From IMG/VR virus record IMGVR_UViG_3300045541_000131, positions 74,653-138,652 of that record: DNA of 64,000 nt. One strand, given 5' to 3'. Source of the DNA: a virus. Position 1 is the stretch's first letter. Each line of letters opens with the position of its first letter. The notes under the pieces were generated by a model that ran no database searches, was not told where the DNA came from, and saw nothing but the letters and a program-made list of their open reading frames with translations. Positions 1 through 60,436 of the stretch are shown one piece after another. A program made the position numbers and the translations under genes.

Positions 1-1
1 C

Positions 2-19043: not shown

Positions 19044-19586
19044 AGGATCTACACTTATTTCGTTGATGTGAACATCACCGGGCTGCTCAAGTATCCAACG
19101 GATATATTCAGCAGCCTTTCTTATTGGCATTGTTTTTCTATCTGGATGTTTGTGCTGAACATTGCTAAGTGAACCAAAGCTGATTAGCGTAACTCGAGGA
19201 TTGTTGGCCCACACGCCTGTCATGCCTAAACTGTTGGCATAATCTCTCAGAGCTTTCTTTTCTGCGTTGTATAACCAATCAGTGGCTTTGTTTACCCTAT
19301 CTGTAGTGCTGCCAATACAAATGATTAATGTACGCTTGTTTTCTGCTTTAAGTTTTTTATAAACTGCTTCAAGCAATAGCGTTTGATTAAATTTCCATAA
19401 TGCGCTACAAAGAATGACTATATCATAGTCTACTGTCATGGCGGCGAATTCTTGCTGTTTGTCACCTTTAGTTAGATCCATACCCATAGTCGATCTACTT
19501 ACAAAGGTTAGTTCGTAGTCAGCTAATTCTTGTTTTATTTCATGAGCTAACCCATATTCAGGATTGCCTGCTACAAGTATTTTCAT
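19032..19586 (-). CDS. Short-chain dehydrogenase/reductase-like NAD(P)-binding protein
   Basis: ILVAGN..YGL, IGS, YNAEK (YxxxK), INEISV. Confidence 0.75.
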   Translation of the reverse strand: MKILVAGNPEYGLAHEIKQELADYELTFVSRSTMGMDLTKGDKQQEFAAMTVDYDIVILCSALWKFNQTLLLEAVYKKLKAENKRTLIICIGSTTDRVNKATDWLYNAEKKALRDYANSLGMTGVWANNPRVTLISFGSLSNVQHKHPDRKTMPIRKAAEYIRWILEQPGDVHINEISVDPLQT

Positions 19587-20896
19587 TTGAACAGTTCCTC
19601 GTATTCATGGGCAATATCTAATATACTGTGGCCGCGAGCTTGATCTAGGTATTTGGTAAACTTAACGAACTCAGGGAGTTTGTCGCTGTAGTCTGCTCCT
19701 AGTGCGTACTTGGTTATGCTGTTTAAAATACTGGCAGCATTTTTAGCTATATCATCCTCGAAGTTATCTGCAAAGTAAGCTATTTCTCTAGCGTAGTATT
19801 CAACTAGTTGCTGTTTAAGCTCCGGGGTCAATATTCTAATGTTTACTCTCTTAGGGCCATGTGCTACGTGATGAGTTATGATAGGACGCTTCTTAGTTGA
19901 GTTAATCTTTTTAAATCCGCTTTCCAGTAGCTTCCAACGCATAAATGTAGGTATGTGCCAAACATTATATGCTGTTACTGTACAGGCCATCCATGGCAGT
20001 ATGTTGCTATTCTTTTGTGCGTACTCATCTAGTTTTTGTAGATTTTTATATGCTTGTGTCCACTTTAAAGGCCAACGTTGATATTCTACTACCGCACCCA
20101 TACCGTCCATGCTGGCACCAACTCTTACCTGCTTGAACTTTGTCCACATGTCTAGTACACGATTAGGCAAGTTACTCATGTTAGTATTGTATTCTAGAAT
20201 CATTTTGCCAGCTTGTCCCATGTCAATACATTTTTGCAAGAACTCATAATGACGTTCAATCATCATAGGTTCACCGCCGGCCATATAAACATGCTTTAGG
20301 TTAGGAATGTTAGCTTCAATCTGCTGCCAAAATGTTTCGCTACTGTGCCAGTCATAGTCTCGAGTAGTTAATCTTCCGTTTTCATTGCGTGTTAGTTTAA
20401 CTGTGCCATGTGTGTCTTTGTACTCGTTGCTGCCGTGATATTCAGTCCATTGTTCATACCAAGTGTGACTATCTGTTGGGCCGCACATACGGCAAGCAAG
20501 ATTACATAAGTTACCAAAACGTAGATCATAATATTCTAAGTTTGGCTCTTTAATTGTGCCATCTTCAGCAGTAACATATCTAGCATCGTCAATGCTGAAC
20601 TTCCAGTTATCTAGTTCATATTGCCTGCGACTGTTAAGGCCGGCAGCTTCTTCTTGCTGACAGCGACCACATTCCTGGCTCCATTCACCAACTAGCATAT
20701 TCTTACGAACTTCACGCATAAGCTCAGCATTTCGAGCTTCAGTCATGTTGTCCATGGCAGCATTGTATGGTGTGCCGTCTGGTTTGCGAACAACGCCTTG
20801 ATTTTCAGTTACATTAGCTTGACAGCATATACGGATATCGCCGTTGTTGCGTACTGCTTGAAATATCCATGGTATAGGACAAAAAGTAGTTGTCAT
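19583..20896 (-). CDS. Radical SAM protein with N-terminal Cys (twitch-like) domain
   Basis: FCPIPW..CC..CGRC; CNLACRMC; GGEP; YNTN; S.DG. Confidence 0.9.
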   Translation of the reverse strand: MTTTFCPIPWIFQAVRNNGDIRICCQANVTENQGVVRKPDGTPYNAAMDNMTEARNAELMREVRKNMLVGEWSQECGRCQQEEAAGLNSRRQYELDNWKFSIDDARYVTAEDGTIKEPNLEYYDLRFGNLCNLACRMCGPTDSHTWYEQWTEYHGSNEYKDTHGTVKLTRNENGRLTTRDYDWHSSETFWQQIEANIPNLKHVYMAGGEPMMIERHYEFLQKCIDMGQAGKMILEYNTNMSNLPNRVLDMWTKFKQVRVGASMDGMGAVVEYQRWPLKWTQAYKNLQKLDEYAQKNSNILPWMACTVTAYNVWHIPTFMRWKLLESGFKKINSTKKRPIITHHVAHGPKRVNIRILTPELKQQLVEYYAREIAYFADNFEDDIAKNAASILNSITKYALGADYSDKLPEFVKFTKYLDQARGHSILDIAHEYEELFK

Positions 20897-21696
20897 TAGA
20901 ATTTCATCCAATTTATATATTTTTCTATCGGGCCGGCTGGCACCACAAAATCATCATGATTAATAACCAGTTCTTCGTATTTTTTATTTTCGATTAGATT
21001 AGATATTTTTTCAAATAATATCAAGTTATTCTCGTCGGACAAGTGATTTTTTCGTTGATCTCTTAATACTCGGTGCTGTTGTACGTCAGCATATCCAAGA
21101 TGAAGTCCGTTGTCTGAATATTTACTTTTATAATCTAATTGTTCTAATTCCCAAAAACACAATTTAAGTAAACTATTGTTGTCCATCGACGATGCGTCAA
21201 TGAATATCAGATTTTTTTCTTTTTTAATTTTTTCAGCAAGAATTTTATTTGTATCTTCGATGTAATCAAAGTCTATCCAATTCTCATAACTAAATTTGAC
21301 ATTCTCGACGATTTGTAATTTTTTTAATAATTTAGAGTCATTGGGTTTGTTTTTTATCACCGCTTTTAATCGATTTTCTAATATTTCTATAGACGAGTGT
21401 CCAATGTACCACGAATGGTTAATGTTTCTTAATTCGTCGACATCCTTCAATAGTAAACTTAGTTTATCAGAATGAAATCTATTTGTAGATGGGCAGACAA
21501 AAATATTAACATCGTGGCTATGTTTATTGCGAAGGTAATCAATATAACACTTGTATGGCGATTTGCCTGGATTTGCGTAATTAATTACTTGGTATTTTGT
21601 TTTTAATAATTCTACCCAGCTAGGACCTAAATCAAGACTATCATGATTGACTTCAGCAAAACTATCCCCGTATATACCTACAGAGATATTACTCAT
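20896..21696 (-). CDS. SGNH/GDSL-like protein
   Basis: GIYGDSF, NYANPG.S, RKNHLS; start moved to 21696. Confidence 0.7.
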   Translation of the reverse strand: MSNISVGIYGDSFAEVNHDSLDLGPSWVELLKTKYQVINYANPGKSPYKCYIDYLRNKHSHDVNIFVCPSTNRFHSDKLSLLLKDVDELRNINHSWYIGHSSIEILENRLKAVIKNKPNDSKLLKKLQIVENVKFSYENWIDFDYIEDTNKILAEKIKKEKNLIFIDASSMDNNSLLKLCFWELEQLDYKSKYSDNGLHLGYADVQQHRVLRDQRKNHLSDENNLILFEKISNLIENKKYEELVINHDDFVVPAGPIEKYINWMKF

Positions 21697-22855
21697 AAGT
21701 TTTATCTCCGGGGAATAACGGTAACTTTGTGCCTGGGGCACGTTTTGGTATCTTGCTATCAGCACTACTTACACAGCTCTTACCCCCGCAAGGCATTGGC
21801 TTGTCATAGAGCTTAAAACCTGTTTCAATGTGACCCAAAGGAACTTCGACGCAACTATAACTACGCTTTACTGTTCCATCCGGTTCGCGAATAATAATAC
21901 TGCGATAACCACTGCTACACTCCCAACCCTGAAAGTTATTAAAGTTAAAAGCATTAAAACGTTCAGCTTGATCCATGAACCATGGCTTGCCGTCCTTGTC
22001 GATGAATTCAACTTGATAATGTGCCGGCACATCAACTTGCTGTTTACGTTGTGGGTCAGCTCGGTCAATCATGTAAGTTGGCTTAGGTCTCTCTATTAGG
22101 CCAGCCGCTCGAGCCTTTTGCTCAGTATAAGCTCTCTGTGGCATGCCGTTGTGTAGCTTGGCTAGCATGTCTTCAGTATAGCCTTCTACCACACGACTGG
22201 CAGTAGGATCGCTTTGTGGCTTTAGTGTAACATTAATACCACGCTCATGGAAGTAAAGTGCTAGGTCATAAATCTCATAGAATTGCTCAGGAACCATAAC
22301 CATGTTAATGGTTATTTGTGTGTCATACTCCTGGCACAATACTAGCTTGTCAGCAAATTCGGCAACCTTCTCCTGTGTGTTAACATGCTCTCTGTGGCAG
22401 CTGGCCGTAATACTAGCACGATGGAAATGACGAACTGCCGGCACATACTTTTGTTCAAACCACTTTAAAGGTCTGCTCATATTGCTGGTCATATGAACGC
22501 TGGTATAGTTTGTATTGGCTACATCTGCGTTTAGATGTTCTAGTATGTCAATATAAGCAGGATGAAATGTAGGTTCGCCTCCACTTAGACTAAAGTGGAA
22601 ACTGTTAAAGCCGCGCTCGCGGGCCTGTCGTTTTATCTCGTCTACAGTTTTAAGCATCAACGGTGTAGGACGATGATCTTTCGTATCGCTACGAGCATAT
22701 GGCCAACAATAGCTACAACGATAATTACAGTAGCGACCTAGTAGCCAACTAACTGTAAACATATCACGATATAACATTGTGCGTTGTCCTACGCGAACAA
22801 GATCCTTGTAGGGTATTTTGGTAAAATCGTAATCGCTGGTTTTTAAATCACTCAT
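21689..22855 (-). CDS. Radical SAM protein with C-terminal Cys cluster
   Basis: CNYRCSYC, SGGEPT, TSN, GWEC...SC...C...C. Confidence 0.9.
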   Translation of the reverse strand: MSDLKTSDYDFTKIPYKDLVRVGQRTMLYRDMFTVSWLLGRYCNYRCSYCWPYARSDTKDHRPTPLMLKTVDEIKRQARERGFNSFHFSLSGGEPTFHPAYIDILEHLNADVANTNYTSVHMTSNMSRPLKWFEQKYVPAVRHFHRASITASCHREHVNTQEKVAEFADKLVLCQEYDTQITINMVMVPEQFYEIYDLALYFHERGINVTLKPQSDPTASRVVEGYTEDMLAKLHNGMPQRAYTEQKARAAGLIERPKPTYMIDRADPQRKQQVDVPAHYQVEFIDKDGKPWFMDQAERFNAFNFNNFQGWECSSGYRSIIIREPDGTVKRSYSCVEVPLGHIETGFKLYDKPMPCGGKSCVSSADSKIPKRAPGTKLPLFPGDKTYE

Positions 22856-22872
22856 TTTATTAATAAAATTCT

Positions 22873-23580
22873 TTATAAATTTGTTATATAAAAAGTCTGA
22901 AATGGAGGCTGTACATATTCGTCTATGTCAATATTTACTTCTTCGCCAGACAACCATTTTAAAACATTTCTAAAGAAAATTGCATTGTTTTCAGCTGACA
23001 TGTGTGCATGTCTATAATCTGCCGTCTGGGCCCAATTTATGTCTAAGCTCCAGCCGTCTAACTCTTTGAAAGAAATATCCTTCATATATGATTTTCCTTT
23101 ATAAAAATTAGATGTCGCTGAGCAAGCAGGAATTAATACTGCGTCGGGTCTTTTATCTAAAATATCTTTAATCATAAGGTTATACACATATGAATCATAA
23201 TCATCATTTTGTATATATTGAAAATAATCCTTTACCGCAGTTAAAATTTTTAACTTTTGTAAATCGTTATCATTATACTTTTTAAGTTGACTCAGTTGGA
23301 ACAATTGTCTTTCAACTGACGGCAGGCCCGCTTGATGTCGTCTGAGATCTTTGATGTGGTGATCGGGCAAATATATTCTATTAACATCAGTGACTACAAA
23401 AATAATTTTATCAAAATCATGATGATTTTTTAAAAACTGATCCACTGAATAAAACAGACTAGATCCTTGCTCGGCAAAATTTTTGACATCATGTATCTCA
23501 GACAGCAAATCCATCCAACTTGCTGTGGGGTTCCTAGGATTATTTGCAGCAAAGCTATCGCCAAATATAGCTATTTTCAT
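22873..23580 (-). CDS. SGNH/GDSL-like protein
   Basis: IFGDSF, NFA..GSS, DYRHAHMS..NN. Confidence 0.7.
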   Translation of the reverse strand: MKIAIFGDSFAANNPRNPTASWMDLLSEIHDVKNFAEQGSSLFYSVDQFLKNHHDFDKIIFVVTDVNRIYLPDHHIKDLRRHQAGLPSVERQLFQLSQLKKYNDNDLQKLKILTAVKDYFQYIQNDDYDSYVYNLMIKDILDKRPDAVLIPACSATSNFYKGKSYMKDISFKELDGWSLDINWAQTADYRHAHMSAENNAIFFRNVLKWLSGEEVNIDIDEYVQPPFQTFYITNL

Positions 23581-23810
23581 TCTTCGCTTTCATAAACGAA
23601 CTTAATGTCCCGGCCCGGGCCAACTTCACTGGGCATGCCGCCGTATTCTTTTATATACCATTCTATGGCGGCTACATACCAACCTTGACTATTATGTCTA
23701 CTGGCAATATTAAACTTGTAAATATTATCATTGGTGGCAGGCATGGTGCTGATAACTCGAGCGGCCTCTAACTGTAGTCGACGTAAAGGTAAATCTTTTA
23801 TATCAGTCAT
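23577..23810 (-). CDS. Small hypothetical protein
   Basis: 77 aa, ATGA overlaps on both sides; SRHNSQGWY. Confidence 0.7.
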   Translation of the reverse strand: MTDIKDLPLRRLQLEAARVISTMPATNDNIYKFNIASRHNSQGWYVAAIEWYIKEYGGMPSEVGPGRDIKFVYESEE

Positions 23811-25006
23811 AGGTCTAAGTTGTCCAATAGTTTAACTAATTGATCTGTCTTTTTGTAAGACTGTTTCTTTAAAAGAAATTCTTCGGCTATTTGTTTGTAA
23901 TTGGGTTTGTACGAACTGCCAATCCTGCGGCGCATTTGCTGTAGGTAATCTTGAAAATTTTCTTTGTATACATAATTTATATCTGTTGCCCGCGCTATAG
24001 CCGCTTCAGCTAGGTCAATGTATTTGACATAAGATTCTGGCAAATATGCTATGTCCATTTCATCTGGCCAGCTGGTAAAATTGCCGTACCATGTAAATTC
24101 TTTTGTCGGTGCGTGTTGTCTAAACTGTTCATGTACCCAATCAATATATTGATGAAATGTTTTGAGACTAAACACGTTGGCTGTGGGACTCATTACTATA
24201 AGTTCTGTGTTGGCATGGCTAATATACTTGACAAAGTTTTCGCCGAACCGCTGCCAATTTAACCCGTGTCGAATAAGCTCTGCTGTTTCACCGTAACTTT
24301 CATTGCTGATTCCTATACCCCAAACTAGCTTGCTGGTATCTAACTTAGCGATAATTTTATCCATTAGAAATCGCTTGCTGTTGGCATTGGTGCAGATTTC
24401 CAAACGAATCTTCTTTGTTGTATTAGCAGCACAAGATTCAATGAAATCAACTAGTTCATAAAAACGTTCGCTGGCTGTAGGTTCACCGCCTAAGAAAATA
24501 AACACCAATTGTTCAGCAGTCAGGTCAGTTCTGCTGATATAGTTTTGAATCCAGGACTTAAACACTTCATAATCATTTTCTTTGGTTAAGTCTTGATAGG
24601 GTTCGTTTTGTTCCTGCGCTACTTTACTGCTGCTCCATGCACTACAGTAGATACAGCTCATGTCACAGGTTCTATCTGTTTTTATTTCAATGTAATTAAT
24701 GTGCCTATCGTCATTGAGAATTTCTCGATGATTTTCAATGTAAGAATCCTGCCAACGATTGGCCCAATCCCTATAGGCACTTTGACCTTTACTGTAGTCG
24801 TTCCAACAGCTAACACAGTCAGAATGTGCGATATTGGACAGACTTTGAAGCCTGCGACTTTGTATTTTATCGCTGTTGCTGATAAATTGTTCGGTTAATG
24901 TTTCCGGAAACGAATAGGTTTTAGCCTTACAGCAGTGCTTTAATGTTCTGGTTTCAAAGTCAATGTTAATATCTGTCCAGGATTTGGAGCAGTAAGTTTT
25001 TGTCAT
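23807..25006 (-). CDS. Radical SAM protein
   Basis: YCSKSW..HCC..CVSCW; CDMSCIYC; GGEP. Confidence 0.88.
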   Translation of the reverse strand: MTKTYCSKSWTDINIDFETRTLKHCCKAKTYSFPETLTEQFISNSDKIQSRRLQSLSNIAHSDCVSCWNDYSKGQSAYRDWANRWQDSYIENHREILNDDRHINYIEIKTDRTCDMSCIYCSAWSSSKVAQEQNEPYQDLTKENDYEVFKSWIQNYISRTDLTAEQLVFIFLGGEPTASERFYELVDFIESCAANTTKKIRLEICTNANSKRFLMDKIIAKLDTSKLVWGIGISNESYGETAELIRHGLNWQRFGENFVKYISHANTELIVMSPTANVFSLKTFHQYIDWVHEQFRQHAPTKEFTWYGNFTSWPDEMDIAYLPESYVKYIDLAEAAIARATDINYVYKENFQDYLQQMRRRIGSSYKPNYKQIAEEFLLKKQSYKKTDQLVKLLDNLDL

Positions 25007-25044
25007 GATAAATTTATTTTGACAAGAAAATGTCAATGCAGTTC

Positions 25045-25056
25045 ATAAATATTTAT
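25045..25056. promoter_or_regulatory. Palindromic bidirectional late promoter
   Basis: ATAAATATTTAT gives TAAATA on both strands between divergent genes. Confidence 0.6.
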
Positions 25057-25791
25057 ATGAGCGATATACTAAACGAATATGGTATCAGCAAAGAACCAAT
25101 CGAATCCTTTGCTAAAAGAAATGACTTCGCTGCCAACAAGCCTTACCCACAAAATTTAACTTCTGGCCAGGAAGTTAACAAAAGCCCGGACATTGCCTTC
25201 CTACCAATCGACTGGGAAACTGAACAAGATTGGCAGGGTATGCACGAAGAAGCTAAAAGGTTAAGCAAGCACTTTGTTCCCCATAGACATCATGAAAGTC
25301 ATCGTGGATGGAGCAGTTTGTGTATTCACGGCCTAAGCAGCATTCATACTGAAAGCAGTCATACTTATGGATTCACTGATGATACTGCGCCATGGCGTTG
25401 GACTGATGTAGCAGATTGGTGTCCGAAAATTACTGACTTCTTTAAGAATCAATTTGATTATAAGAAGTATTTTAGAATTAGAATAATGAAGTTAGCTCCG
25501 GGCGGTTATGTAATACCACACAAAGACAGTTTGAAACAGGAAGAAAATCATATAGGCCCTATTAATTTTGCACTGAACAATCCCGAAGGCTGTAAATTTT
25601 ACATGGACAACGTGGGATACTTACCATGGCAACAAGGTCGTGCAATTAAGTTAAATTTATACAACGTTCATGCGGTTTACAATGACAGCAACGAAGATAG
25701 ATATCATGTAATCATTCATGGTCATATGGGTCCAAGTTGGATGGATAGAATTTACAATAACTACAATACATGGAAAAAGGTTTATGCTTAA
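25057..25791 (+). CDS. Aspartyl/asparaginyl beta-hydroxylase-like 2OG-Fe(II) oxygenase
   Basis: GWSSLC.HG, RIRIM.L.PGG...PHKD, HAVYN.S.EDR.H.I.H. Confidence 0.82.
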   Translation: MSDILNEYGISKEPIESFAKRNDFAANKPYPQNLTSGQEVNKSPDIAFLPIDWETEQDWQGMHEEAKRLSKHFVPHRHHESHRGWSSLCIHGLSSIHTESSHTYGFTDDTAPWRWTDVADWCPKITDFFKNQFDYKKYFRIRIMKLAPGGYVIPHKDSLKQEENHIGPINFALNNPEGCKFYMDNVGYLPWQQGRAIKLNLYNVHAVYNDSNEDRYHVIIHGHMGPSWMDRIYNNYNTWKKVYA

Positions 25792-27271
25792 AACATTTGC
25801 AAATGCCCTAGTAAAAGACAAATCAAATATTGGAATAGATCCCATAGTAAGACAAAGTTTAATGACATTCTATCAACGTAACATGTACATTGATAGGATA
25901 AAGAACAATCCAGTTAGATCAATTGTTGAAAGTACAGAAGATGCTTGCATTCAATCGGCTGAACAGGAAAACTTTGACTATGTTATTTTAACCTGGGAAG
26001 GTAACATTTTTGATATTCACAACTATCACGAAAAATGTATCGATGCTGTCAATGACTTAGACGCAAAAACTAACGGCAACTGGTTAGTCTGCGGCCAGAT
26101 CATTGACCAATACGAGAATAGAGTCTTGTATAATGATACTAACAAGGATCAGTGGCGTAATAGCTTTTGGTTATTTCCTATTACTGCTATTGTGAACATT
26201 AAAAAATGGCGCGAGCTAGGTAAGCCTGCTTGGGGTAACGAAGGCGAGTTTAACGAACTGGTCAATGTCGTTGCTAGCGAAGAATGTATTCACGACAACT
26301 ACACTCCATTAGAAATTCGTGCAGGCGCAGGCACCAGCATGACCAAGACAAAAAAGTCTTGGAATATTGTTAATACATCTTTGCTCAATGGGTTGACCGT
26401 TTATAACTTGCCTGTCGAAGTTCGCAGTGTACAAAACTATCTTTATCCTGAAGTTAACGTTGATAGATATAATCAATTTTGGTTAAGTTTATATAACATG
26501 CCAAAACTAACAGACCAGTACAAGCGAGTTTTAAACTCTATTATTACCAGTAAATATCCCAAACGAATCAATGACAGCACTTGGCAGTTTTTTATTAGAA
26601 ATACCGAAGACTATGAACCAAGATATCCCGAGTTGGGCACAGTTGACTGGTCAACTGTTCAAACACTAATGATGCCTAGCAGCGGCTTTAAAGACTTTAT
26701 TGTCAGCATGGGCAAAAACGGGCCAAGAAAAACTTTTGAATACATACACTTTGATATTATTCCTCAATGTGTTGAAATCAAGCGGCAGATCATTGAACTA
26801 TGGGATGGCAAAAGAACGTCGTTTGAATCCGTAATGTCCACAATTGGTAAAAAGTATAGATCGAATCCACATGATGCTTTTCATATGCATTCCATGAAAA
26901 CATTCGAAGAAGCTTACAATCATATACTGCCATTTTTTAACAGTGAACAAGACCTGGAAGAACAGTGGCTAAAGTTTAAGGCCTGCACTCACAAATACAT
27001 CGAAGCAGACATGCTAACTGATCCCTATGATGCAATCAAACTAATCCAGCACAAAACCATTTATCTATGTCTCAGTGACATAGCCGGTTGGCGCAATAAT
27101 ATCATGAGCTATGGATATAAAAATCTACGCAACGATATCATCAATTGCGTGCAAAGCATCAGAAATAAAGGCATTGACGGATTTGTAGACTATAAAGACC
27201 CCGGTACTGACTTGCAAATGTGGCAAAGTTTTGATCGTGCCATTGAACATCTTGGAATAGATATCGTATGA
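25784..27271 (+). CDS. Two-domain hypothetical protein (GT-like N-terminus, SAM-binding-like C-terminus)
   Basis: HDNYTP..I; C-terminal PSSG...HFD..P..LWDG...LSDI.GW. Confidence 0.6.
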   Translation: MLKTFANALVKDKSNIGIDPIVRQSLMTFYQRNMYIDRIKNNPVRSIVESTEDACIQSAEQENFDYVILTWEGNIFDIHNYHEKCIDAVNDLDAKTNGNWLVCGQIIDQYENRVLYNDTNKDQWRNSFWLFPITAIVNIKKWRELGKPAWGNEGEFNELVNVVASEECIHDNYTPLEIRAGAGTSMTKTKKSWNIVNTSLLNGLTVYNLPVEVRSVQNYLYPEVNVDRYNQFWLSLYNMPKLTDQYKRVLNSIITSKYPKRINDSTWQFFIRNTEDYEPRYPELGTVDWSTVQTLMMPSSGFKDFIVSMGKNGPRKTFEYIHFDIIPQCVEIKRQIIELWDGKRTSFESVMSTIGKKYRSNPHDAFHMHSMKTFEEAYNHILPFFNSEQDLEEQWLKFKACTHKYIEADMLTDPYDAIKLIQHKTIYLCLSDIAGWRNNIMSYGYKNLRNDIINCVQSIRNKGIDGFVDYKDPGTDLQMWQSFDRAIEHLGIDIV

Positions 27272-43988: not shown

Positions 43989-43989
43989 A

Positions 43990-50235: not shown

Positions 50236-50564
50236 TGCTTATATGCTTCTATTTTAACAATCTTACCTTCACTATTAAAGGTAACAATATCTACTACCTT
50301 CAATGCGTTACCGTCAACTTCAACAAGAATTTTTGACATAGATGTTGTGCCATAAACTGCGATTAGACTGGGAGTTACTTGTATATTTCCTACAGAGTCA
50401 AATAGTTTTTGATTAAATTCTAAAACTAAGCTGCGACCAGTATAATTTACATCCCAGTCAATAAGTTGGATATTTTCGTCGAACATTCTTTTTAGTTCGG
50501 CAGAATCTTTGTTGCTAAACGCACGAAAATAATCCCTGGTTAAGTTTTCAACTATAGTTTGCAT
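50232..50564 (-). CDS. SnoaL/NTF2-like protein
   Basis: YF.AFSNKD...L..MF...I.L.DW...VVD...F...GKI..I.AY. Confidence 0.8.
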   Translation of the reverse strand: MQTIVENLTRDYFRAFSNKDSAELKRMFDENIQLIDWDVNYTGRSLVLEFNQKLFDSVGNIQVTPSLIAVYGTTSMSKILVEVDGNALKVVDIVTFNSEGKIVKIEAYKQ

Positions 50565-52089
50565 TTTCTAATTCCTGAAAAAGTTTAATACCTAAATACC
50601 ATAAAAACAAATCAAAAGGTGCTGTATGTAACGGGCTCATGTTCCAAAATATAATTGGAACTAATGTTTGCACTTTTTTATAGTCTAATCCTTGTTCAGT
50701 GACAAACTCTTTTAATTGTTTTTGATAAACATCCGAATGATTGATACTAGGCACACCGATAGTTACAGAATCACCGTTAATCTCAAAAGTAAAATTGTGT
50801 TTTTTAATATCAGAATAATTAATTATAAATCCGCCTAGAATTTTACCAAGATCATAGTAAATGTCTCCGTATTCAACTACCCTGGCAAACTCATGTCTCC
50901 AATCAATGGCTTTGAATGATAGGTTGTCGTCAATGATAACATTGTCAAATTGCAAGTCACCGTGTATAAATCCAGCAGCATAACTTGTTGATAACCAGTC
51001 CCAGTCAATTTTATCTAAATAATATTTGTAGTCATTGACTTTTAATCCATTAACATATTCAACGGTTGAAAGTCCAGGATATTTTTCCAAGAATTTATTA
51101 ATTCGATTTAAAGTTTTTGTCTTGTAAAAATCATTGCAAGCCTCTTGCAAATCCATATCAACGGGTTGCCAGAGATTTGTTTTTAACCAATCAAGAAATT
51201 TTGGAAATATAGAAGGATCGTCAAAATTATATAAAGTCTGTCCTGGATGGAAATCATAGGCCATATAATTGCCCACATACTGGCAATTTGCAGGAAAAAC
51301 ATCAAGGTTGGCTTGAAATTTTTCATATTTCTTTTTAGATGTCGAAGCATCTAGCCACCACTTAACTACACGATTATTGCAAATATAAGTTACTTCGTCC
51401 GTTTTACTAAAATCAAACTTTTGACTTTTACTCAATGCTGTGGTATATTGATCCGCACTGCCAAAGTCGAGCCACGTATCTAATGTAGCAATGTCGCTAC
51501 CTCGACGAATGATTGGTATAAACTCTGTGCCGTTATGTGCAGTCAAATCATCAAAAAATCGTTGCCAATTATGAATATACATGAGGCCAGTCCATGCAGC
51601 CCAATTACTAGATTGACGTTGTTTAAAAGTAATATCCTCTATTGTATTGTCCTCGGCGATTTTAAACATTGTATAAAGAGCAGATATATCTTCGGGAACA
51701 TGCTTTACAAAATAACAGTCGCGATCCTGCACTTTATCTAAAACAGCTTGATCAAAATATGTATCACAAGTCACATACCAAAATGGTTTATTAACGGCAG
51801 ATTTACACTGTAATACACTATAACCAGTGCCGGATTTAGGACTTGTCCAATCATCAATCTCAATAAATTCTATATGTCTATCACTATAGGCGATTTGACA
51901 AAAGTCTTTAACTTGTTGCGCTAGATATCCTACTGGTATAATGAAATGAGTATCTTTGGGAAACTGCTCGATTATATGACTCAGCACCGGTTTATTAAGA
52001 TAAGGCAACAAAGCCTTATTAAGGTTTTTAGTATAGTTTCCCATTCTACTGCCTAAACCAGCAGTAGGGATAATTACAGTATTATTCAT
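50548..52089 (-). CDS. Bifunctional NTP-transferase (LicC/GlmU-like) + APH/choline-kinase-like phosphotransferase
   Basis: IPTAGLGSRM...NKALL; C-terminal HGDLQFDN, IDWR, GD.YYDL.K. Confidence 0.85.
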   Translation of the reverse strand: MNNTVIIPTAGLGSRMGNYTKNLNKALLPYLNKPVLSHIIEQFPKDTHFIIPVGYLAQQVKDFCQIAYSDRHIEFIEIDDWTSPKSGTGYSVLQCKSAVNKPFWYVTCDTYFDQAVLDKVQDRDCYFVKHVPEDISALYTMFKIAEDNTIEDITFKQRQSSNWAAWTGLMYIHNWQRFFDDLTAHNGTEFIPIIRRGSDIATLDTWLDFGSADQYTTALSKSQKFDFSKTDEVTYICNNRVVKWWLDASTSKKKYEKFQANLDVFPANCQYVGNYMAYDFHPGQTLYNFDDPSIFPKFLDWLKTNLWQPVDMDLQEACNDFYKTKTLNRINKFLEKYPGLSTVEYVNGLKVNDYKYYLDKIDWDWLSTSYAAGFIHGDLQFDNVIIDDNLSFKAIDWRHEFARVVEYGDIYYDLGKILGGFIINYSDIKKHNFTFEINGDSVTIGVPSINHSDVYQKQLKEFVTEQGLDYKKVQTLVPIIFWNMSPLHTAPFDLFLWYLGIKLFQELENANYS

Positions 52090-52522
52090 GCTCATGCGCG
52101 ATTTTGCCATGCTTACGACCCTTGTCGTCTTGTAATCTAATAACATCGTCTAGTTCAATAGTGCTGGCTTCGATAAAAGTCAAGTCCGTAGTAGCTACTA
52201 CACGATGCACGTATCCAGGTTTAACGTCAAAAGCTACACCTTCAAACAAATCAATAACATCAAATGTGTGTTCATATTTTAGAACTTCTTCATCGGTCAT
52301 GCCTTTTTCAAGAAATCCATCAATATCAATGATTTCTTTACTGCGATAAAGCTTGCCTGTGCCACTTAATACATACGTGGTTTCCATTTTTTCTCTATGC
52401 ACTTGCAAACTAGTTCTGTTGCCGGCTTTAAATAAAATCTTCTTAAGAGCATAAGGGGTTCTAACTCCGTCGGCAATCCAAAGCTCGTGCCCCCAATGTT
52501 TATTAACAAGTTTTAAATCCAT
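52082..52522 (-). CDS. Cupin (mannose-6-phosphate isomerase type II C-terminal-like)
   Basis: K.WG.E, RTSLQ.H..K.ET, PG.VHR, EAST.ELDDV.RL.DD.GR. Confidence 0.82.
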   Translation of the reverse strand: MDLKLVNKHWGHELWIADGVRTPYALKKILFKAGNRTSLQVHREKMETTYVLSGTGKLYRSKEIIDIDGFLEKGMTDEEVLKYEHTFDVIDLFEGVAFDVKPGYVHRVVATTDLTFIEASTIELDDVIRLQDDKGRKHGKIAHEHE

Positions 52523-53328
52523 TTATTTTCCTTGAGTTTATCTAATACTATCTCAAACGCCTTTACATGTCCCAAATGACTGGTATGCCAGCTGGGCAAA
52601 TCATCGGGGTAATCTAAGCTTAGTTGACCCCAATCAACATTAGCTAAGTTTTCCTCATTGATAAATTTTTTGTAATATGCGGGCTCATGAGTTAATATTA
52701 GATGCTTAACGTTCGCTCTTTTTAATAACTCATGTGCTAGTGTTAACACTCCAATACTATATATCCTATTAATTCGTGGTTCATGCACTATAGTGGCAAA
52801 GTCATATAATGCCTTTATCTTTTTTTTGGGTTCCGTGTCAAATCGCTTATAATATGCAGACTCTACGCCAGTTGACCCAAATTTTTCCCAATAGTCAATG
52901 ACCCCTACATAATTTTCAGTATACATGGCGCCAGTATAGTCGGGATCATTGGCCATTGGATTATTTAATACTATCGGAGTTCCATTAACAATATATCCGT
53001 TATCAAAGTAAGGAGGATATTGATGATAATTTACATCAGTGTTTTCTAGTTCCCCGTGAGGAAAATCATAATCTAAAGGAAACCACTCAACTCTATCATA
53101 GCTAGTATTAGATACAATGACTAGATCGTTGGTATTTGCTAATCTTTCAGCAGCATATTTTGCCTGCAGATATATGCTAAAATTTGTGCTAGAACCTTTA
53201 GCTAAATTGATTAAATCACAACCAAGATGATTTCGTAATAGACTTCCATACGGCTCCGTTTCTAAGTTATGGCAACCGATGCCAATGCTAAAGCTGTCGC
53301 CGCAAACTATTACTCTTTTAAATTCCAT
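52513..53328 (-). CDS. SGNH-like protein
   Basis: CGDSFS.G, NLA.GS.TN..I..Q, R.E, WHTS..GH. Confidence 0.72.
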   Translation of the reverse strand: MEFKRVIVCGDSFSIGIGCHNLETEPYGSLLRNHLGCDLINLAKGSSTNFSIYLQAKYAAERLANTNDLVIVSNTSYDRVEWFPLDYDFPHGELENTDVNYHQYPPYFDNGYIVNGTPIVLNNPMANDPDYTGAMYTENYVGVIDYWEKFGSTGVESAYYKRFDTEPKKKIKALYDFATIVHEPRINRIYSIGVLTLAHELLKRANVKHLILTHEPAYYKKFINEENLANVDWGQLSLDYPDDLPSWHTSHLGHVKAFEIVLDKLKENKWI

Positions 53329-55575: not shown

Positions 55576-56516
55576 ATGATTTTATTTTCTCTCATATAAC
55601 GAACTAATTCATAAGCCCATGCTTCGTGACTTTCGGGGCCAGGGTGCCATCCGCAAAATACATCTTTAACTCCACTGTCAGGGCTTTCGATATAACTCTT
55701 AAACGTATTTTGCGGTTTATCTTTTTTGTAAAACCTAACGGGATCAACAGTATCCCATAAGGCGGTATAATCTATCATTCTAACATCTCTGGCTGTAGGA
55801 TTATTTGTTTGTTGATATTGATAACCATGCAGTTTTGATTTTAGGTTTTCTAGTTCTTTTCGTATATCCAGATCATACCATTGCCGAACATTGGCTGCAG
55901 GGGTTTGATAAAAACTATTAAAACACATCCATTTAATATTGTATGCTTGACAAAAATTTTGTAACTGCACTACATTAAAAATAAATCGAGGAATATATTC
56001 TTCGGGATGCCATAGATAGGGAACATATAGTTCCCAGAACTTTTCCTGCTGCACAGAGTCAAAATGTCTAACTTGTGGCCATAGTCTGAAGTTCATGCTG
56101 ATCTTTTCATCTTTATACCAAAAGCTATTACGTTCAGGACTGCTCCATCCTACAATTACTAACAAATTATCAGTAGGGCGATTCTTAGCAATATATTCAT
56201 TGGTGATAAATTCAATTGTTCTACGTAGTATACTGCCATTGTCGTCGGCTGGCCAACTTAGATTAATGACGTTGGCATTTAGAAGTTTGGACAAATGCGT
56301 AGAAAATATTTTGGGACGGCGATAAGCGTCGTTGGCTTCTTCAAAATCATATACGCCTGGATGTACGCCTTCTGCATGTTTCTTAGTTATTTCAGGGTCA
56401 ACTATTTCACTGCCAAACACCCAGCTATCGCCGTCGCAAATAATTTCCAACGGCGATGATTTTTTACTAGATTCGATTGTAACAGAATCTAATAGGCTCT
56501 TAGATATACCATTCAA
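55572..56516 (-). CDS. SGNH-like protein (DUF6071-like)
   Basis: DGDSW.FG.E, N..I.RRT, VGWSSPER, HP..ESH..WA. Confidence 0.75.
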   Translation of the reverse strand: MNGISKSLLDSVTIESSKKSSPLEIICDGDSWVFGSEIVDPEITKKHAEGVHPGVYDFEEANDAYRRPKIFSTHLSKLLNANVINLSWPADDNGSILRRTIEFITNEYIAKNRPTDNLLVIVGWSSPERNSFWYKDEKISMNFRLWPQVRHFDSVQQEKFWELYVPYLWHPEEYIPRFIFNVVQLQNFCQAYNIKWMCFNSFYQTPAANVRQWYDLDIRKELENLKSKLHGYQYQQTNNPTARDVRMIDYTALWDTVDPVRFYKKDKPQNTFKSYIESPDSGVKDVFCGWHPGPESHEAWAYELVRYMRENKII

Positions 56517-57348
56517 AATATTTTTTCCTTATTTCCATGTAATCATCTAGGCCATCTAGGCCAGCGTCAACTGCTGTGCTTCTAACTACTGCATATTCAA
56601 ATCCTCGAGAACCGTCGGGGTGTATACTAAGATTTGTTAGATGTTCATAAAGCATACAGCCGGGGCCATACCACATTGTGGGATCAGTATTTACCGATGA
56701 TTCATTTTTTGCTAATGCATCAGGATTATGAAGTATTTTATAAGTGTCGTAAATATCTCCTACAAGATCCATAGTCTTGCTGTCGCCATAAAACATAACA
56801 TCATCAAAATTATTGTAATTAAACTCGCTAGGAAACTTTGATATCGGCGTCACCGTGTAACAAACTCCAGGCCATAGTTTAGACAAAGGAAATTTCATTA
56901 CATTAGGATACACAGTATCTAATCTTGCCTTTACAACCATATCATATTCAAATTGATTGTTTAGTTCATGTTCTCGCTTGAGGATTAAACTTCTTGCAAA
57001 ACTATAGAACATAGGATCCCAAGCACGAGGTAATTTGTCTCTATTAAACTTTTCGATTTCGTGTGCCACTGGGTTAAATGCTGCAACTAGATCAGCATTG
57101 TCATTATGCTCGACTTCTTCAAATTCATGATGATGGGTTCTAGGTTTACGCCAAGTGTTAATATTCCAAGTATGCATAAAGTAATCAACTTGTATATATT
57201 GGCTAGTATTAGGGTGGCGTATTCCTTTAAAATCAAAAAACTGTTTAATATTTTTTTCAGCAGTTCGCCAATGGCGCGGTTGGCCACTAAAGCAAACTGC
57301 TATTCGATAAGGATCTTTAGGTTCTGGTATATCACTAAATGACGTCAT
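56500..57348 (-). CDS. SGQPR/RxD family protein (putative glycosyltransferase-like)
   Basis: IAVCFSGQPR, DYF.HTW, YD.VV..R.D, DD..FYG. Confidence 0.62.
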   Translation of the reverse strand: MTSFSDIPEPKDPYRIAVCFSGQPRHWRTAEKNIKQFFDFKGIRHPNTSQYIQVDYFMHTWNINTWRKPRTHHHEFEEVEHNDNADLVAAFNPVAHEIEKFNRDKLPRAWDPMFYSFARSLILKREHELNNQFEYDMVVKARLDTVYPNVMKFPLSKLWPGVCYTVTPISKFPSEFNYNNFDDVMFYGDSKTMDLVGDIYDTYKILHNPDALAKNESSVNTDPTMWYGPGCMLYEHLTNLSIHPDGSRGFEYAVVRSTAVDAGLDGLDDYMEIRKKYFEWYI

Positions 57349-58198
57349 TTGATTGTAACTCCCCGTCTAGTCCGGCTTTTACTCTTTGTTCGAGATAATC
57401 ATCTTGTCTACATAGTTTAGGATCGAATGTCAATGGATACACACTCATCCTTAACATTTTGGCATAAAAATACAAAACATTTTCGGTTTTAATTTGACTA
57501 CCATTAAAACTTCTAGTTCCAATGATTGGAATCCATCGATAAAAATCACAAGTTCTATCAAATGTTACACTGTCAGCATACCAAAATGCATCACCTAATC
57601 TATGATATGGAAATTGATCATGATCTTTTGCTATGTGGCAAGCATAAAATGTATTATATCTTGGTCGCCTTGCATCAGTATTTTCGTGGCTGAAAAACCA
57701 GTTAGTTTGATGATCGTTTAGTTGTAAGTCGTAACGAATTCTAATGCACATATCATAACGAAAATCGTTATCAAACTCATATTTCTTCTTTAATGCTGCT
57801 GATCGCATAACAGCATAAAACTGACTGCCAGCGAATTCAATGCTGGCTGAGCCATGTTCATTAATATTTTTTAGTGCGTTAAAATATAGATCGAGATTTT
57901 TTTGTTTGCTAATGGCTTGATTCTCAAAAAGAAAACTCTTAGGTTTATAAGCTTGTATTATTTCTGCCTTTTCTTCTTCAGACAGCATTTCAGCTGTAAC
58001 TCGAAGAAAGTCGGGTTTATTTTCTTCGCCAGGTTTAGCTAATAATGCGTGTGGCAGCGTGTTAAAATCCCATGCATGGCAAAACACATCAACTTCAGCA
58101 CCAAAGTGAGATTTTAATCGGTCAATGAATTTTATATGACCTTCTTGACATTTGCGCCAGGTGCGTGGCTGGCCGCTGTAACATAGTGCTATTTTCAT
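57335..58198 (-). CDS. SGQPR/RxD family protein (putative glycosyltransferase-like)
   Basis: IALCYSGQPR, DVF.HAW, YD...R.RYD, GD.FWY, E..L. Confidence 0.62.
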   Translation of the reverse strand: MKIALCYSGQPRTWRKCQEGHIKFIDRLKSHFGAEVDVFCHAWDFNTLPHALLAKPGEENKPDFLRVTAEMLSEEEKAEIIQAYKPKSFLFENQAISKQKNLDLYFNALKNINEHGSASIEFAGSQFYAVMRSAALKKKYEFDNDFRYDMCIRIRYDLQLNDHQTNWFFSHENTDARRPRYNTFYACHIAKDHDQFPYHRLGDAFWYADSVTFDRTCDFYRWIPIIGTRSFNGSQIKTENVLYFYAKMLRMSVYPLTFDPKLCRQDDYLEQRVKAGLDGELQSNDVI

Positions 58199-59034
58199 GG
58201 TAACCTCAATACATTGTCAATGTCCATGGGACTTACTTTTAAAGTTTCATGGTGATGATCTCTATATATCATCATAGTATTATCCTTCCAAGTCTTTACA
58301 GGAATTTTGTTTTCAATACAATACATCATATGATGAGTTTGCCAATCACTGTTATTACCGTCAACACTGGCGCGAACTTCTGCAAAATGGCATACTTGGT
58401 CCATGAGTTCGGAAGTACCGTACCAAGCTATATCTTCAACACCATCTGGTAGTCTATTATAATGATCGCAAACATAAAGGTATTGATCTTTAGTGCTCAT
58501 GAATGCTTTTTCATATTCCCATGAGTGTTCTTTTCTAAAAATTTGATCAAATCGCATTCTTATAACACGCCAATACTTTTGATTAAATTTTTCTTCTGTC
58601 TTCTTTTTTAGATTATTACATTCCCATAAACTTTGAAACATAGGAATGCTAGCCCAACAAGTGCCATATTTTTGTTTTATATATACTTTATATTCTTCTT
58701 GATATTTTTCGCAATCATCAACTCGATATAAAATGGGTTTATAAATGTCTAGTACTTGCTGTAGTTTTTCGTCGCCGACTGGTTTTAAAATATTAGCTAT
58801 AGACTTAGGTCTACCATTTAAATCATGCAGGCCCAATGATTCGGTGGTCCAAGTGTGTATATAAAAGTCAACTTCCGCCGGAATAAATCTAAAAAAGTTC
58901 ATTATAACAGGCGCAACTTCAACAGCAGTTCTAAGTTGCCCGCTCAAACAAACTGCGGTCTTATGATTTGCTAGCACATGATGATTCGTAGCATAACTAC
59001 CTATTTTATATATGCTGGTAAAGTGTTCAGTCAT
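58195..59034 (-). CDS. SGQLR/RxD family protein (putative glycosyltransferase-like)
   Basis: AVCLSGQLR, DFYIHTW, IR.RFD, D..WYG. Confidence 0.62.
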   Translation of the reverse strand: MTEHFTSIYKIGSYATNHHVLANHKTAVCLSGQLRTAVEVAPVIMNFFRFIPAEVDFYIHTWTTESLGLHDLNGRPKSIANILKPVGDEKLQQVLDIYKPILYRVDDCEKYQEEYKVYIKQKYGTCWASIPMFQSLWECNNLKKKTEEKFNQKYWRVIRMRFDQIFRKEHSWEYEKAFMSTKDQYLYVCDHYNRLPDGVEDIAWYGTSELMDQVCHFAEVRASVDGNNSDWQTHHMMYCIENKIPVKTWKDNTMMIYRDHHHETLKVSPMDIDNVLRLP

Positions 59035-60436
59035 TTTTCCACTGCCAATAATATTTTTCAAACTCTGGAAATGTTGCTAAAAAGTTTGTGCCTCTTCTGC
59101 GATCGTGCTCATCAACAAATGCCACAAAGTCTTTTTGATAAAGTCTGTCATTAGGTTGTGCTGTTTTATTGGCAACTAAGTCATAGAGTCTGCGGAACTT
59201 TTCTGCTTCTGTTTTTACAAAGCCTCTATTATTAGTGCCAGCCCATTCCTTATTTTCCAAGTGTCTATACATAAAAGTAACTTGATCGAAAATATATTCT
59301 TTGGCCCAGGTTTGTGGCAACACATACAGTATACTTTGATGTGCTGGATAACGCAGATAAGGCACATCTAGCACTAGAGGACATTGAAGACCATTAGGGC
59401 CGCCAAACTCTGACTTAACGTCAAAGACATCCTGCTGAAACTTTATGTAGTTAGGTATGCTAAGAACATTATAAGTTGACATAATTGTCATGGTACAATT
59501 TGGCACTTCGCGAAGTATGCGACGAAGGTTAGTCAGCCATAAGTTATAATCTAAGCCATCTCTGATATATTCGGCCTGTACTCCGTAGGTGTCACAACTG
59601 GTAAAGACCTTAAACTTTTTGACTTTCTTTTCGCCGCAGATAATTTTAATTTTTTCTATAAAGCGTTCAAATATTTGCGGCGGTACACAAAGGTTAGTGT
59701 TGACACTGAGATCAATCTCGGGATTAGGATTTTCGATAATGTAGTCTAGAACTTTAAAAGTATCCTTGCTTAACAGCGGCTCTCCACCAGTAATTCTAAA
59801 ATGTTTTAGTTCAGGATAAACACTGGGCCACCATTCCCAAAATGCTTCAACATAAGGATTAACTTGACTGTGTGGTATAGGCATCTGGCCCGACTGCTTC
59901 ATCCAAGTAATATCATTAAAGCGGCCGCTGGTTGGATAAGCTCCATATTTTTCGGCTTCCTCCATCCACATGCTACTGATCTGCGGGCTGCAATAGCTAC
60001 ACTTAAAATTGCAGACATTACTGAAACTTACTTCTAAGTAACTGGGATTTATATTTTGATCCCATGGTGCGTTTTTAACTTGATCAAAATAGGGTTGTGC
60101 CCAAGCATCATAGCTTTTATAGATACGGTCACTGATAGCAGCCGAACTACTATCCTCTACGTTCCAGCAGTAGTCACACTCGGCAGGTCTGGTACCTTCC
60201 AGCATCTGCTTACGCTGTTCTTTTTTGAACTTAGTATTATGTAATGCACTGGCATCAACTTTGATTTCCTCTAAGGGAATTTTATGTGTCACTGGGTGAT
60301 GACAGCTATGAGTTTGTCCAAGTTGTAAGTGTAATGTAACTTGTTTCCATTTGGCCAAGCAAAAACTTGGACTTACTGAGTTGATTTTATCTTTGTATGC
60401 GTTTATGTCTTTATTGCTGTCCAATTTGAGCCTCAA
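59027..60436 (-). CDS. Radical SAM protein with N-terminal Cys/His domain
   Basis: FCLAKW..HSCHH..ECDYCW; CNFKCSYC; TGGEP; NTN; start possibly TTG 60424. Confidence 0.9.
   Translation of the reverse strand: MRLKLDSNKDINAYKDKINSVSPSFCLAKWKQVTLHLQLGQTHSCHHPVTHKIPLEEIKVDASALHNTKFKKEQRKQMLEGTRPAECDYCWNVEDSSSAAISDRIYKSYDAWAQPYFDQVKNAPWDQNINPSYLEVSFSNVCNFKCSYCSPQISSMWMEEAEKYGAYPTSGRFNDITWMKQSGQMPIPHSQVNPYVEAFWEWWPSVYPELKHFRITGGEPLLSKDTFKVLDYIIENPNPEIDLSVNTNLCVPPQIFERFIEKIKIICGEKKVKKFKVFTSCDTYGVQAEYIRDGLDYNLWLTNLRRILREVPNCTMTIMSTYNVLSIPNYIKFQQDVFDVKSEFGGPNGLQCPLVLDVPYLRYPAHQSILYVLPQTWAKEYIFDQVTFMYRHLENKEWAGTNNRGFVKTEAEKFRRLYDLVANKTAQPNDRLYQKDFVAFVDEHDRRRGTNFLATFPEFEKYYWQWKND

Follow-up and report, generated by a model that had tools for sequence, protein, structure and literature searches.

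The final 64,000 nucleotides (positions 74,653 to 138,652, hereafter the window) of the 138,652-base virus record IMGVR_UViG_3300045541_000131 in IMG/VR encode a cluster of approximately 44 genes, packed end to end between position 19032 and about 63953, almost all on the minus strand and with a single intergenic gap of more than 40 bp (226 bp). The cluster contains 15 radical S-adenosylmethionine (SAM) open reading frames (ORFs) between 19583 and 60436, 14 on the minus strand and one on the plus strand (27268; ORFs are named here by their low coordinate). Ten of these encode proteins in which a four-cysteine module precedes the SAM motif, and profile comparisons support the homology of this module with the twitch/SPASM-type domain that follows the catalytic core in other radical SAM enzymes. 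This architecture is already catalogued, as NCBIfam NF033640 (N_Twi_rSAM), and is functionally unstudied. For the cluster as a whole we favor a role in the radical tailoring of a sugar or glycan, a reading to which we give about an even chance.

An N-terminal twitch-type module in ten radical SAM proteins

A preliminary description of the window, made from its letters without database searches, had sorted the same 15 ORFs into four groups (A to D). All fifteen were found again, and each has exactly one CX3CX2C motif. Fourteen match Pfam PF04055 at E≤0.001, nine with at least the 29.5-bit gathering score and five below it; ORF 38515 has no Pfam match at that threshold, yet scores 243.6 bits against NF033640. 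A GGEP motif is present in 12 of the 15 and gives way to G....DP in the three group D proteins (30567, 36520, and 42143), where a C-terminal P-C-C and a Cx3C are likewise invariant. The motifs that had been listed for groups A and B (FC..P(W/F), C..(K/S)W, SCH/HCC, and CxxC) are legible in the translations, and those of group C (W.L...C.Y.CSYC, GW.C, and IPK) are invariant between 21689 and 37568.

The NF033640 profile ("twitch domain-containing radical SAM protein") aligns over approximately its full length of 398 positions to all ten group A and B proteins. Seven exceed its curated cutoff of 170 bits, with scores of 243.5 to 435, and the other three align near the full profile but score lower, 23807 by just 0.4 bits, together with 39786 and 40962. 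The proteins of groups C and D match the profile in the core only (25 to 57 bits) and are not members. Besides the three members under the cutoff, the window departs from the family description in 27268, which adds a 231-residue N-terminal extension that has no Pfam match.

In a ten-way alignment of the group A and B proteins, which are 18 to 35% identical to the reference, four cysteines upstream of the SAM motif are invariant (C10, C28, C91, and C94 in the numbering of 34374), as are GGEP, the three cysteines of the SAM motif, and a few further residues; the four-cysteine module, CX3CX2C, and GGEP are shared with NF033640. The N-terminal pattern is C-x17/18-C(C)-x38-62-CxxC, its cysteines lying 45 to 60 residues or more upstream of CX3CX2C, and in all ten proteins the module ends about 40 to 55 residues before that motif, rather than in the usual C-terminal position of a twitch domain. 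The preliminary description was thus right to place an auxiliary cysteine module N-terminal to the SAM motif in ten paralogues; the solved twitch and SPASM domains treated in the relevant passages of Grell et al. (PMC6231123) are C-terminal to the core.

The same cysteines are conserved well beyond the window. A set of 84 related loci yielded 1,400 ORFs with a minimum length of 150 residues, and we assigned 642 of these with three profiles made from the window groups (364 to the N-terminal-cysteine type, 184 to the D type, and 94 to the C type). After duplicates and weak matches were dropped, the four N-terminal cysteines were kept in 292, 289, 293, and 293 of 293 N_Twi-type ORFs from the window and the 84 loci, so the motif is real and far beyond what chance would produce.

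Several comparisons connect this module to the twitch/SPASM domains. Pfam SPASM matches two of the ten N-terminal modules (29315 and 33190) and one of the three group D C-terminal domains (42143). The seven-cysteine SPASM motif (CX9-15GX4C-gap-CX2CX5CX3C-gap-C) is absent from the module, which keeps four cysteines, or five with the CC doublet; the small number of conserved cysteines and the partial Pfam matches fit the truncated, or twitch, form. When the N-terminal 125 residues of the N_Twi profile were aligned to the last 117 of group D with hhalign, the match had a probability of 89% (E 2.3e-6), with hairpin, P-C-C doublet, and last cysteine pair in register. The full-length profiles align both core to core (N_Twi 135-345 with D 6-189; 99%, E 3.3e-18) and N terminus to C terminus (N_Twi 9-96 with D 287-381; E 1.2e-3), and two such noncolinear alignments are the signature of a domain-order swap.

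Structure prediction, which the preliminary description had proposed as a check, points the same way. AlphaFold2, given 66 diverse sequences, produced a confident model of 34374 (predicted local distance difference test score [pLDDT] of 92.6, predicted template modeling score of 0.91) that places C10 before a predicted β-hairpin (16-19/24-26), C28 after it, and, following helices, C91 and C94 at the start of a further helix. The module as modeled therefore has the twitch order of cysteine, hairpin, cysteine, helix, and two cysteines, and it would share that order with BtrN, MoaA, and SkfB (twitch) and with anSME and CteB (SPASM), in all of which the domain follows the core whereas in N_Twi it precedes it. 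In the passages of PMC6231123 drawn on here, the SPASM/twitch fold is a hairpin followed by a helix; the first cluster ligand precedes the hairpin, the second follows it, and the other two come behind the helix. In the same passages, the auxiliary cluster of BtrN uses all four cysteines, the number conserved in the N_Twi module.

A structure search with the 34374 model aligned the core only (model residues ~135 to 430, 12 to 17% identity). The nearest structures were anSME (Z 12.1), BlsE (11.8), CteB, DesII, viperins, SkfB, and MoaA, with radical SAM cores matched at Z scores of 10 to 12; none of the solved structures is a close match. Sequential aligners of this kind are unable to show a permuted module, and the absence of BtrN from the 50 structure entries listed is uninformative on relatedness.

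Three layouts, their age, and their spread

We computed a tree of the ten window proteins and 50 relatives drawn at random, using group D (three proteins) as the outgroup. Groups A and B each formed one side of a branch, with Shimodaira-Hasegawa-like approximate likelihood ratio test support of 88 (A) and 97 (B), and N_Twi subclades from other phages fell outside both. Groups A and B are thus subclades of one family with the same domain order, and the "four architectures" of the preliminary description, although its groups are real, reduce to three layouts.

Groups C and D are separate families that are related to N_Twi through the core only. Group D has its auxiliary module in the usual C-terminal twitch position, with the C-terminal cysteines kept in 131 to 134 of 142 relatives. 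In group C, 36 of 37 relatives retain C313, C356, and C361; the C-terminal region that holds them aligned by hhalign at probabilities of only 5% to the N_Twi N-terminal module and 2% to the group D C-terminal domain, and the group C profile had no match among PDB sequences.

The paralogues are old, as judged from their sequence divergence: most are 20 to 33% identical, with one closer pair (39786/40962, 49%). In the tree, 19583, 27268, 34374, 23807, 38515, and the 39786/40962 pair each stand beside a closer orthologue from other phages; for 29315, 33190, and 59027, which have long branches, the 50 relatives drawn include no close orthologue. With such identities, and with orthologues in other phages, the expansion that the preliminary description had inferred is neither local nor recent. 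Of the 84 related loci, 83 contain a D-type gene and 64 a C-type gene. Recurring individual genes are 34374 (84 loci), 42143 (80), the glycosyltransferase-like 44966 (72), and 21689 (44). The genes between these recurring core genes vary, and the content is hypervariable even between close relatives.

Beyond these loci the family is very large. A search with the 34374 protein returned 4,669 matches at E≤0.001, the best 120 of which are all at least 71% identical, and there are 203 matching stretches in viral contigs. A single-sequence N_Twi search of 1.84 billion cluster representatives (50% identity) gave 8,858 matches at E≤0.001 and 1,157 at E≤1e-30. Eight of the representatives (P0126, P0135, P0143, P0146, P0147, P0183, P0241, and P0242) are 790 to 873 residues long and match the query in two or three stretches; from these sequences they are apparently tandem double N_Twi proteins, which could bear on the origin of the domain order. 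Close homologues carry generic names only, such as "MoaA/NifB/PqqE/SkfB family radical SAM enzyme."

Members scoring above the NF033640 cutoff are found in both phages and bacteria. A 342-kb relative, 92% complete, has 14 such ORFs. One bacterial match came from a Bacteriovoracaceae metagenome-assembled genome, and 31 of 151 sampled genomes of its phylum, Bdellovibrionota, contained members, some on multimegabase contigs; none was found in 14 model organisms. A 1.27-Mb contig of the candidate phyla radiation (CPR; "Parcubacteria") carries seven N_Twi, two D-type, and one C-type gene in a row, between genes for phosphoglycerate kinase, enolase, MurJ, and BacA, and this array is chromosomal. Its neighbors include a family 1 glycosyltransferase (GT1), a fusion of a radical SAM domain with a family 2 glycosyltransferase (GT2), a TagF-like transferase, nucleotidyltransferases, and separate Sua5/YrdC-like and TsaD-like genes. 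We note that the fusion (L090:255-1871) has its CX3CX2C at residue 16, and that the Sua5/YrdC-like and TsaD-like genes (L004:3285-3917 and L090:1865-3118) stand where the phage counterpart is a fused carbamoyltransferase; these two families correspond to the two halves of TobZ-type carbamoyltransferases.

Neighboring genes and the phage record

The radical SAM ORFs are interleaved with putative glycosyltransferase, carbamoyltransferase, precursor-supply, and SGNH-like genes (Table 1).

Table 1. Features of the radical SAM (rSAM) cluster, with window coordinates
Feature	Coordinates	Strand	Evidence
rSAM, N_Twi, group A	19583..20911	-	NF033640 371.9 bits, profile 2-398; Cys 11/29/81/84, CX3CX2C at 136
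SGNH/GDSL-like	20896..21765	-	iterated profile from 22873, E 1.3e-48
rSAM, group C, conserved core gene	21689..22855	-	PF04055 51.7 bits; CX3CX2C at 43; C313/C356/C361
SGNH/GDSL-like	22873..23580	-	iterated profiles
rSAM, N_Twi, group B	23807..25036	-	NF033640 169.6 bits, profile 2-383; Cys 16/35/74/77, CX3CX2C at 124
Asp/Arg beta-hydroxylase-like 2-oxoglutarate (2OG) oxygenase	25030..25791	+	Pfam Asp_Arg_Hydrox 1.3e-10
rSAM, N_Twi, group A, 231-residue N-terminal extension	27268..29352	+	NF033640 243.5 bits, residues 232-678
rSAM, N_Twi, group A	29315..30577	-	NF033640 323.4 bits; Pfam SPASM 9-71, Radical_SAM 124-303
rSAM, group D	30567..31640	-	PF04055 54.4 bits; GVYGDP for GGEP; C252, C271/272, C329, C333
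SGNH/GDSL-like	32457..33203	-	Pfam Lipase_GDSL 2.4e-6
rSAM, N_Twi, group A	33190..34377	-	NF033640 280.9 bits; Pfam SPASM 15-81
rSAM, N_Twi, group A, most conserved core member	34374..35771	-	NF033640 435 bits
SGNH/GDSL-like	35789..36523	-	iterated profiles
rSAM, group D	36520..37584	-	GTIDDP; C243, C262/263, C334, C338
rSAM, group C	37568..38518	-	PF04055 29.5 bits; best NCBIfam match STM4011 family, 48 bits
rSAM, N_Twi, group B	38515..39756	-	NF033640 243.6 bits
rSAM, N_Twi, group B	39786..40958	-	NF033640 139.8 bits, profile 12-397; 49% identical to 40962
rSAM, N_Twi, group B	40962..42143	-	NF033640 149.1 bits, profile 5-397
rSAM, group D, conserved core gene	42143..43318	-	Pfam SPASM 288-367, C-terminal to Radical_SAM 13-169
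Three GT-A-like paralogous modules	43311-44030, 43990-44997, C-terminal third of 44966-46978	-	mutual BLASTP E 1e-19 to 1e-36
NodU/TobZ-type carbamoyltransferase	46975..48447	-	Carbam_trans_C 2e-54, Carbam_trans_N 2.2e-39; phrog_1601 3e-105
Precursor block: GatZ/KbaZ-like, shikimate-dehydrogenase-like, SnoaL-like, nucleotidyltransferase + APH-like kinase fusion, cupin	48444..52522	-	Pfam + NCBIfam
SGNH/GDSL-like	52513..53328	-	iterated profile from 32457, E 1.6e-17
Three SGNH/DUF6071-like	54107-54727, 54724-55575, 55572-56516	-	iterated profiles link all; DUF6071 5.5e-14, 8.4e-14 in two
Uncharacterized family phrog_13607, three paralogues	56500..59061	-	PHROG matches, mutual profile matches
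rSAM, N_Twi, group B	59027..60436	-	NF033640 346.2 bits
Tail-fiber-like protein, upstream end of minus-strand string	62450..63355	-	C-terminal part: phrog_6427, phrog_22593, phrog_19602 (tail fiber protein)

The three GT-A-like modules share a D72-x-D74 motif that is invariant in 49 sequences. None of 43311, 43990, and 44966 has a match to a Pfam glycosyltransferase family, and for 44966 the ESM Atlas matches were unnamed viral clusters throughout, a lead to Glycos_transf_2 being weak (0.86). All top Foldseek matches of an AlphaFold2 model of the 43311 family (pLDDT of 87.1) are GT-A enzymes, namely 2p6w (PBCV-1 capsid), SunS, RmlT, and WrtF. The best of these, the PBCV-1 A64R-type structure 2p6w (E 1.4e-4, probability 1.00), has the DxD in common with the phage family, but the TM score is only 0.34 to 0.38, the identity is 15%, and PBCV-1 is a eukaryotic virus.

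Pfam and iterated profile searches join eight ORFs into one SGNH/GDSL/DUF6071-like superfamily, with 32457 linked to six of its seven paralogues directly and to 20896 via 22873, and three or four cluster ORFs belong to a phrog_13607-type family. No candidate membrane segment was found in 47 ORFs (the 44 of the cluster and three upstream of it in the window), Pfam matched no flippase, polymerase, or polyprenyl-phosphate (lipid-carrier) transferase family in the window, and the 44 cluster ORFs contain no recognition element or precursor-type family of ribosomally synthesized and posttranslationally modified peptides (RiPPs) by Pfam and NCBIfam.

The plus-strand ORF 27268 belongs to an inverted module (25030-29352) together with the hydroxylase-like protein and a 517-residue uncharacterized protein. 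As called, its ends run 7 and 38 bases into the neighboring minus-strand ORFs, and the module has the same orientation in related phages. A 276-residue ORF at 31637-32467 has no family match and is kept in 23 of the 84 related loci; by eye it shows an H-x-D ... H pattern, which could mark a 2OG/Fe(II) oxygenase.

The remainder of the record encodes a family B DNA polymerase (phrog_262, E 5.6e-194), a gp44-type clamp loader, PhoH, UvdE, a tail-fiber-like protein with collagen repeats, and a curli CsgG homologue, which together indicate a large tailed phage with T4-like replication genes. CheckV estimates the record to be 33% complete, so at 138.7 kb the genome is probably much larger than those of the pelagimyophages. 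Runs from the same study as the best-matching samples are labeled as freshwater or lake metagenomes. Outside the window, the record carries in one run (G000:C1:14375-19573, locus L085) a SUF-type iron-sulfur (Fe-S) assembly string of SufB, an uncharacterized 263-residue ORF, a SufC-like ABC ATPase, a SufD-like fragment, a class V aminotransferase of the cysteine desulfurase type, SufE, and an FeS_assembly_P protein, and phage-borne SUF genes fit a heavy need for Fe-S clusters.

The record resembles T4-like marine phages in its T4-like replication genes, curli CsgG, and Fe-S assembly genes and in radical SAM cassettes that lie near tail-fiber genes and vary between relatives, but it is of freshwater type. 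According to the available passages of PMC7029224, radical SAM cassettes with glycosyltransferases lie in a hypervariable host-recognition cluster of pelagimyophages, where O-chain modification was proposed, and differ between two close phages; those of PMC5332604 report a 183-kb T4-like environmental genome with 12 radical SAM genes and Fe-S assembly genes. Cassettes of several radical SAM genes in T4-like marine phages were thus already in print; in these passages the genes are mentioned without architecture classes, an N-terminal twitch, or a function.

Among the unusual auxiliary genes of the record (G000:C1:1451-3520 and 9920-11550 [L085]; L087:3570-5009; L086:6576-8774) are those for a CHASE2-adenylate/guanylate cyclase, curli-repeat and CsgG proteins, a subunit of a TctA tricarboxylate transporter, and a double AAA ATPase resembling ClpB. 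At the start of the window, the NDP-sugar dehydrogenase match of ORF 343-1266 begins at profile position 75, directly downstream of a separate 114-residue ORF (2-346) in another frame; the region 2-1266 may be a split or frameshifted gene or reflect a miscalled start. FolE (GTP cyclohydrolase I), a phosphoribosyltransferase, an HIT protein, and a QueE-like protein follow at 1283-5398 and may be pieces of a 7-deazaguanine pathway; the QueE-like protein has no CX3CX2C, and its matches fall into two separate stretches, residues 3-37 and 118-248. A conserved phage gene pair at 13219-15895 encodes an AAA ATPase (phrog_1297) and a DUF2201 metallopeptidase/VWA-like protein (phrog_1314, which carries an HNH endonuclease annotation in PHROG).

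Against 50,697 phage records, megablast of window positions 1-20000 found no match, and tblastn of 34374 found matches in four only, at 22 to 25% identity. A tRNA scan found none. The T4-type late promoter word TATAAATA is not enriched in the window (2 observed against 7.4 expected), and one of the two copies (25050-25057, minus strand) lies directly upstream of the 23807 radical SAM start. Scans of 44001-64000 gave no signal for sigma-70-like sites (73 against 70.9 expected) or terminators (17 against 12.4).

A candidate sugar- or glycan-tailoring pathway and its alternatives

The GT-A-like modules, the carbamoyltransferase, the precursor block, the SGNH-like genes, the lack of membrane-segment candidates, the CPR array, and the SUF string together favor a cytoplasmic pathway that would build a sugar unit for a soluble acceptor. 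We hypothesize that the N-terminal module of each N_Twi protein holds a fully cysteine-ligated auxiliary [4Fe-4S] cluster. Behind this module come the SAM-cleaving core and a helical C-terminal region; group D has the homologous module at the usual C-terminal position and group C a different C-terminal cysteine region. The paralogues would generate a 5'-deoxyadenosyl radical and abstract hydrogen from a sugar-type substrate, each at a position or on an intermediate of its own, potentially with the auxiliary cluster as an electron outlet, as is thought for the structurally studied dehydrogenases BtrN (twitch) and anSME (SPASM). The successive tailoring steps could be oxidations, epimerizations, dehydrations, or decarboxylations. 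The kinase-nucleotidyltransferase block would supply and activate the precursor, which would be carbamoylated, and acylated or deacylated by the SGNH-like enzymes. The soluble acceptor to which the GT-A-like enzymes would transfer the sugar-type unit may be a virion protein. The phage SUF operon could supply the roughly 28 to 30 Fe-S clusters that such a set of enzymes would need. The analysis shows the genes with their motifs, family membership, conservation, and neighborhood, the homology of the modules, and the predicted fold; from these we infer the cluster binding, the sugar substrate, the order of steps, and the acceptor. A virion protein is a candidate acceptor given the tail-fiber-like gene at 62450-63355, the placement of the pelagimyophage cassettes in the passages of PMC7029224 used above, and the protein-glycosylating top matches of the GT-A-like model. 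The phage cluster and the cytoplasmic protein glycosylation of PBCV-1 have in common a soluble, virus-encoded machinery without membrane proteins; to our knowledge, no radical SAM enzymes are involved in the PBCV-1 system.

A number of observations weigh against the tailoring hypothesis or against the twitch assignment that it builds on. The N- to C-terminus alignment of the full-length profiles has a probability of only 19%, and the meeting of the four cysteines at one site is a prediction. The nearest structures, at Z scores of about 12 over the core only, include peptide modifiers (anSME, CteB, and SkfB) besides sugar enzymes. The GT-A assignment is drawn from low TM scores of 0.3 to 0.43 and the DxD motif, several of the precursor-block matches fall under curated Pfam or NCBIfam cutoffs, and about a dozen cluster ORFs belong to no family. 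Literature searches returned no publication on "N-terminal twitch," "N-terminal SPASM," or "NF033640," and nothing relevant on phage, radical SAM, glycan, and tail fiber. The same searches gave no N_Twi family member with a described chemistry, consistent with the preliminary description insofar as it had called the chemistry undescribed; the architecture itself is one already curated by NCBI.

The radical SAM enzymes could instead modify a protein or peptide, for example the adjacent tail fibers, by epimerization, cross-linking, or hydroxylation, with the sugar genes serving a separate function. This is compatible with nearest folds that include anSME, CteB, SkfB, SuiB, and EpeE, with the tail-fiber-like gene that adjoins the cluster, and with the Asp/Arg beta-hydroxylase homologue within it, but we consider it unlikely: Pfam and NCBIfam show no RiPP-recognition element or precursor-type family in the 44 cluster ORFs, though a divergent element or a precursor farther away may have escaped them, the one sizeable intergenic gap is 226 bp, and the CPR chromosome has the same radical SAM classes among glycosyltransferases, including the fusion to GT2.

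Equally unlikely, in our assessment, is a remodeling of the host surface polysaccharide (O-antigen or capsule) during infection that would block superinfection. Such a role, by O-chain modification, was proposed in the passages of PMC7029224 for glycosyltransferases of the pelagimyophage host-recognition cluster, which also holds radical SAM cassettes, and sugar-activating and transferase genes are present in the window. The 47 ORFs examined nonetheless lack membrane-segment candidates, Pfam gave no match in the window to a flippase, polymerase, or polyprenyl-phosphate transferase family, and the top structural matches of the GT-A-like model include enzymes that glycosylate proteins (2p6w, capsid; SunS, peptide).

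Rather improbable, too, is the synthesis of a free small molecule in place of a glycan, such as a carbamoylated aminocyclitol- or pseudo-sugar-type metabolite. The shikimate-dehydrogenase-like, GatZ-like, SnoaL-like, kinase-nucleotidyltransferase, and TobZ/NodU-type carbamoyltransferase genes would suit such a product, and BtrN, a twitch dehydrogenase, acts in an aminoglycoside pathway (PMC6231123, in the passages drawn on here). Set against this are the absence of an exporter or resistance-type gene from the cluster, the hypervariable gene content of close relatives, and the three GT-A-like paralogues with tail-fiber-like neighbors, which fit a macromolecular acceptor better.

Least probable is a hypermodification of nucleotides or phage DNA, which the weak core matches to the viperin, MoaA, and QueE families, the thyX, folE, and QueE-like genes within 18 kb upstream, and the predicted solubility of all the enzymes might suggest, but the viperin, MoaA, and QueE scores are far under the family cutoffs, the homologous CPR clusters lie among glycan genes rather than DNA-metabolism genes, and we know of no DNA-modification module with a variable cassette structure beside tail-fiber-like genes.

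Returning to the tailoring of a sugar or glycan, a broader version is possible that we put forward tentatively and would not expect to hold in all its parts together. In that version, radical sugar chemistry would have a large branch in the N_Twi family, carried as interchangeable cassettes by phages, CPR bacteria, and predatory bacteria, in which each paralogue would perform a different radical edit. The outcome would be a set of hypervariable glycans on virion or surface proteins, added in the cytoplasm, that could serve as a diversifying layer of recognition or evasion. The front position of the twitch module would go back to a swap of domain order in an ancestor resembling group D, whose relatives are still in the same operon.

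The N_Twi family is very large yet uncharacterized, and it breaks the rule that twitch and SPASM modules follow the core. A single operon here brings together ten diverged N_Twi members and both other layouts, beside candidate substrate-supply and transferase genes, and with the phage's own Fe-S assembly genes it provides a compact starting set for new radical reactions. The cluster could reveal what large aquatic phages decorate, and if its product is a virion glycan, it would bear on host range and on the arms races between phages and hosts in lakes and oceans.

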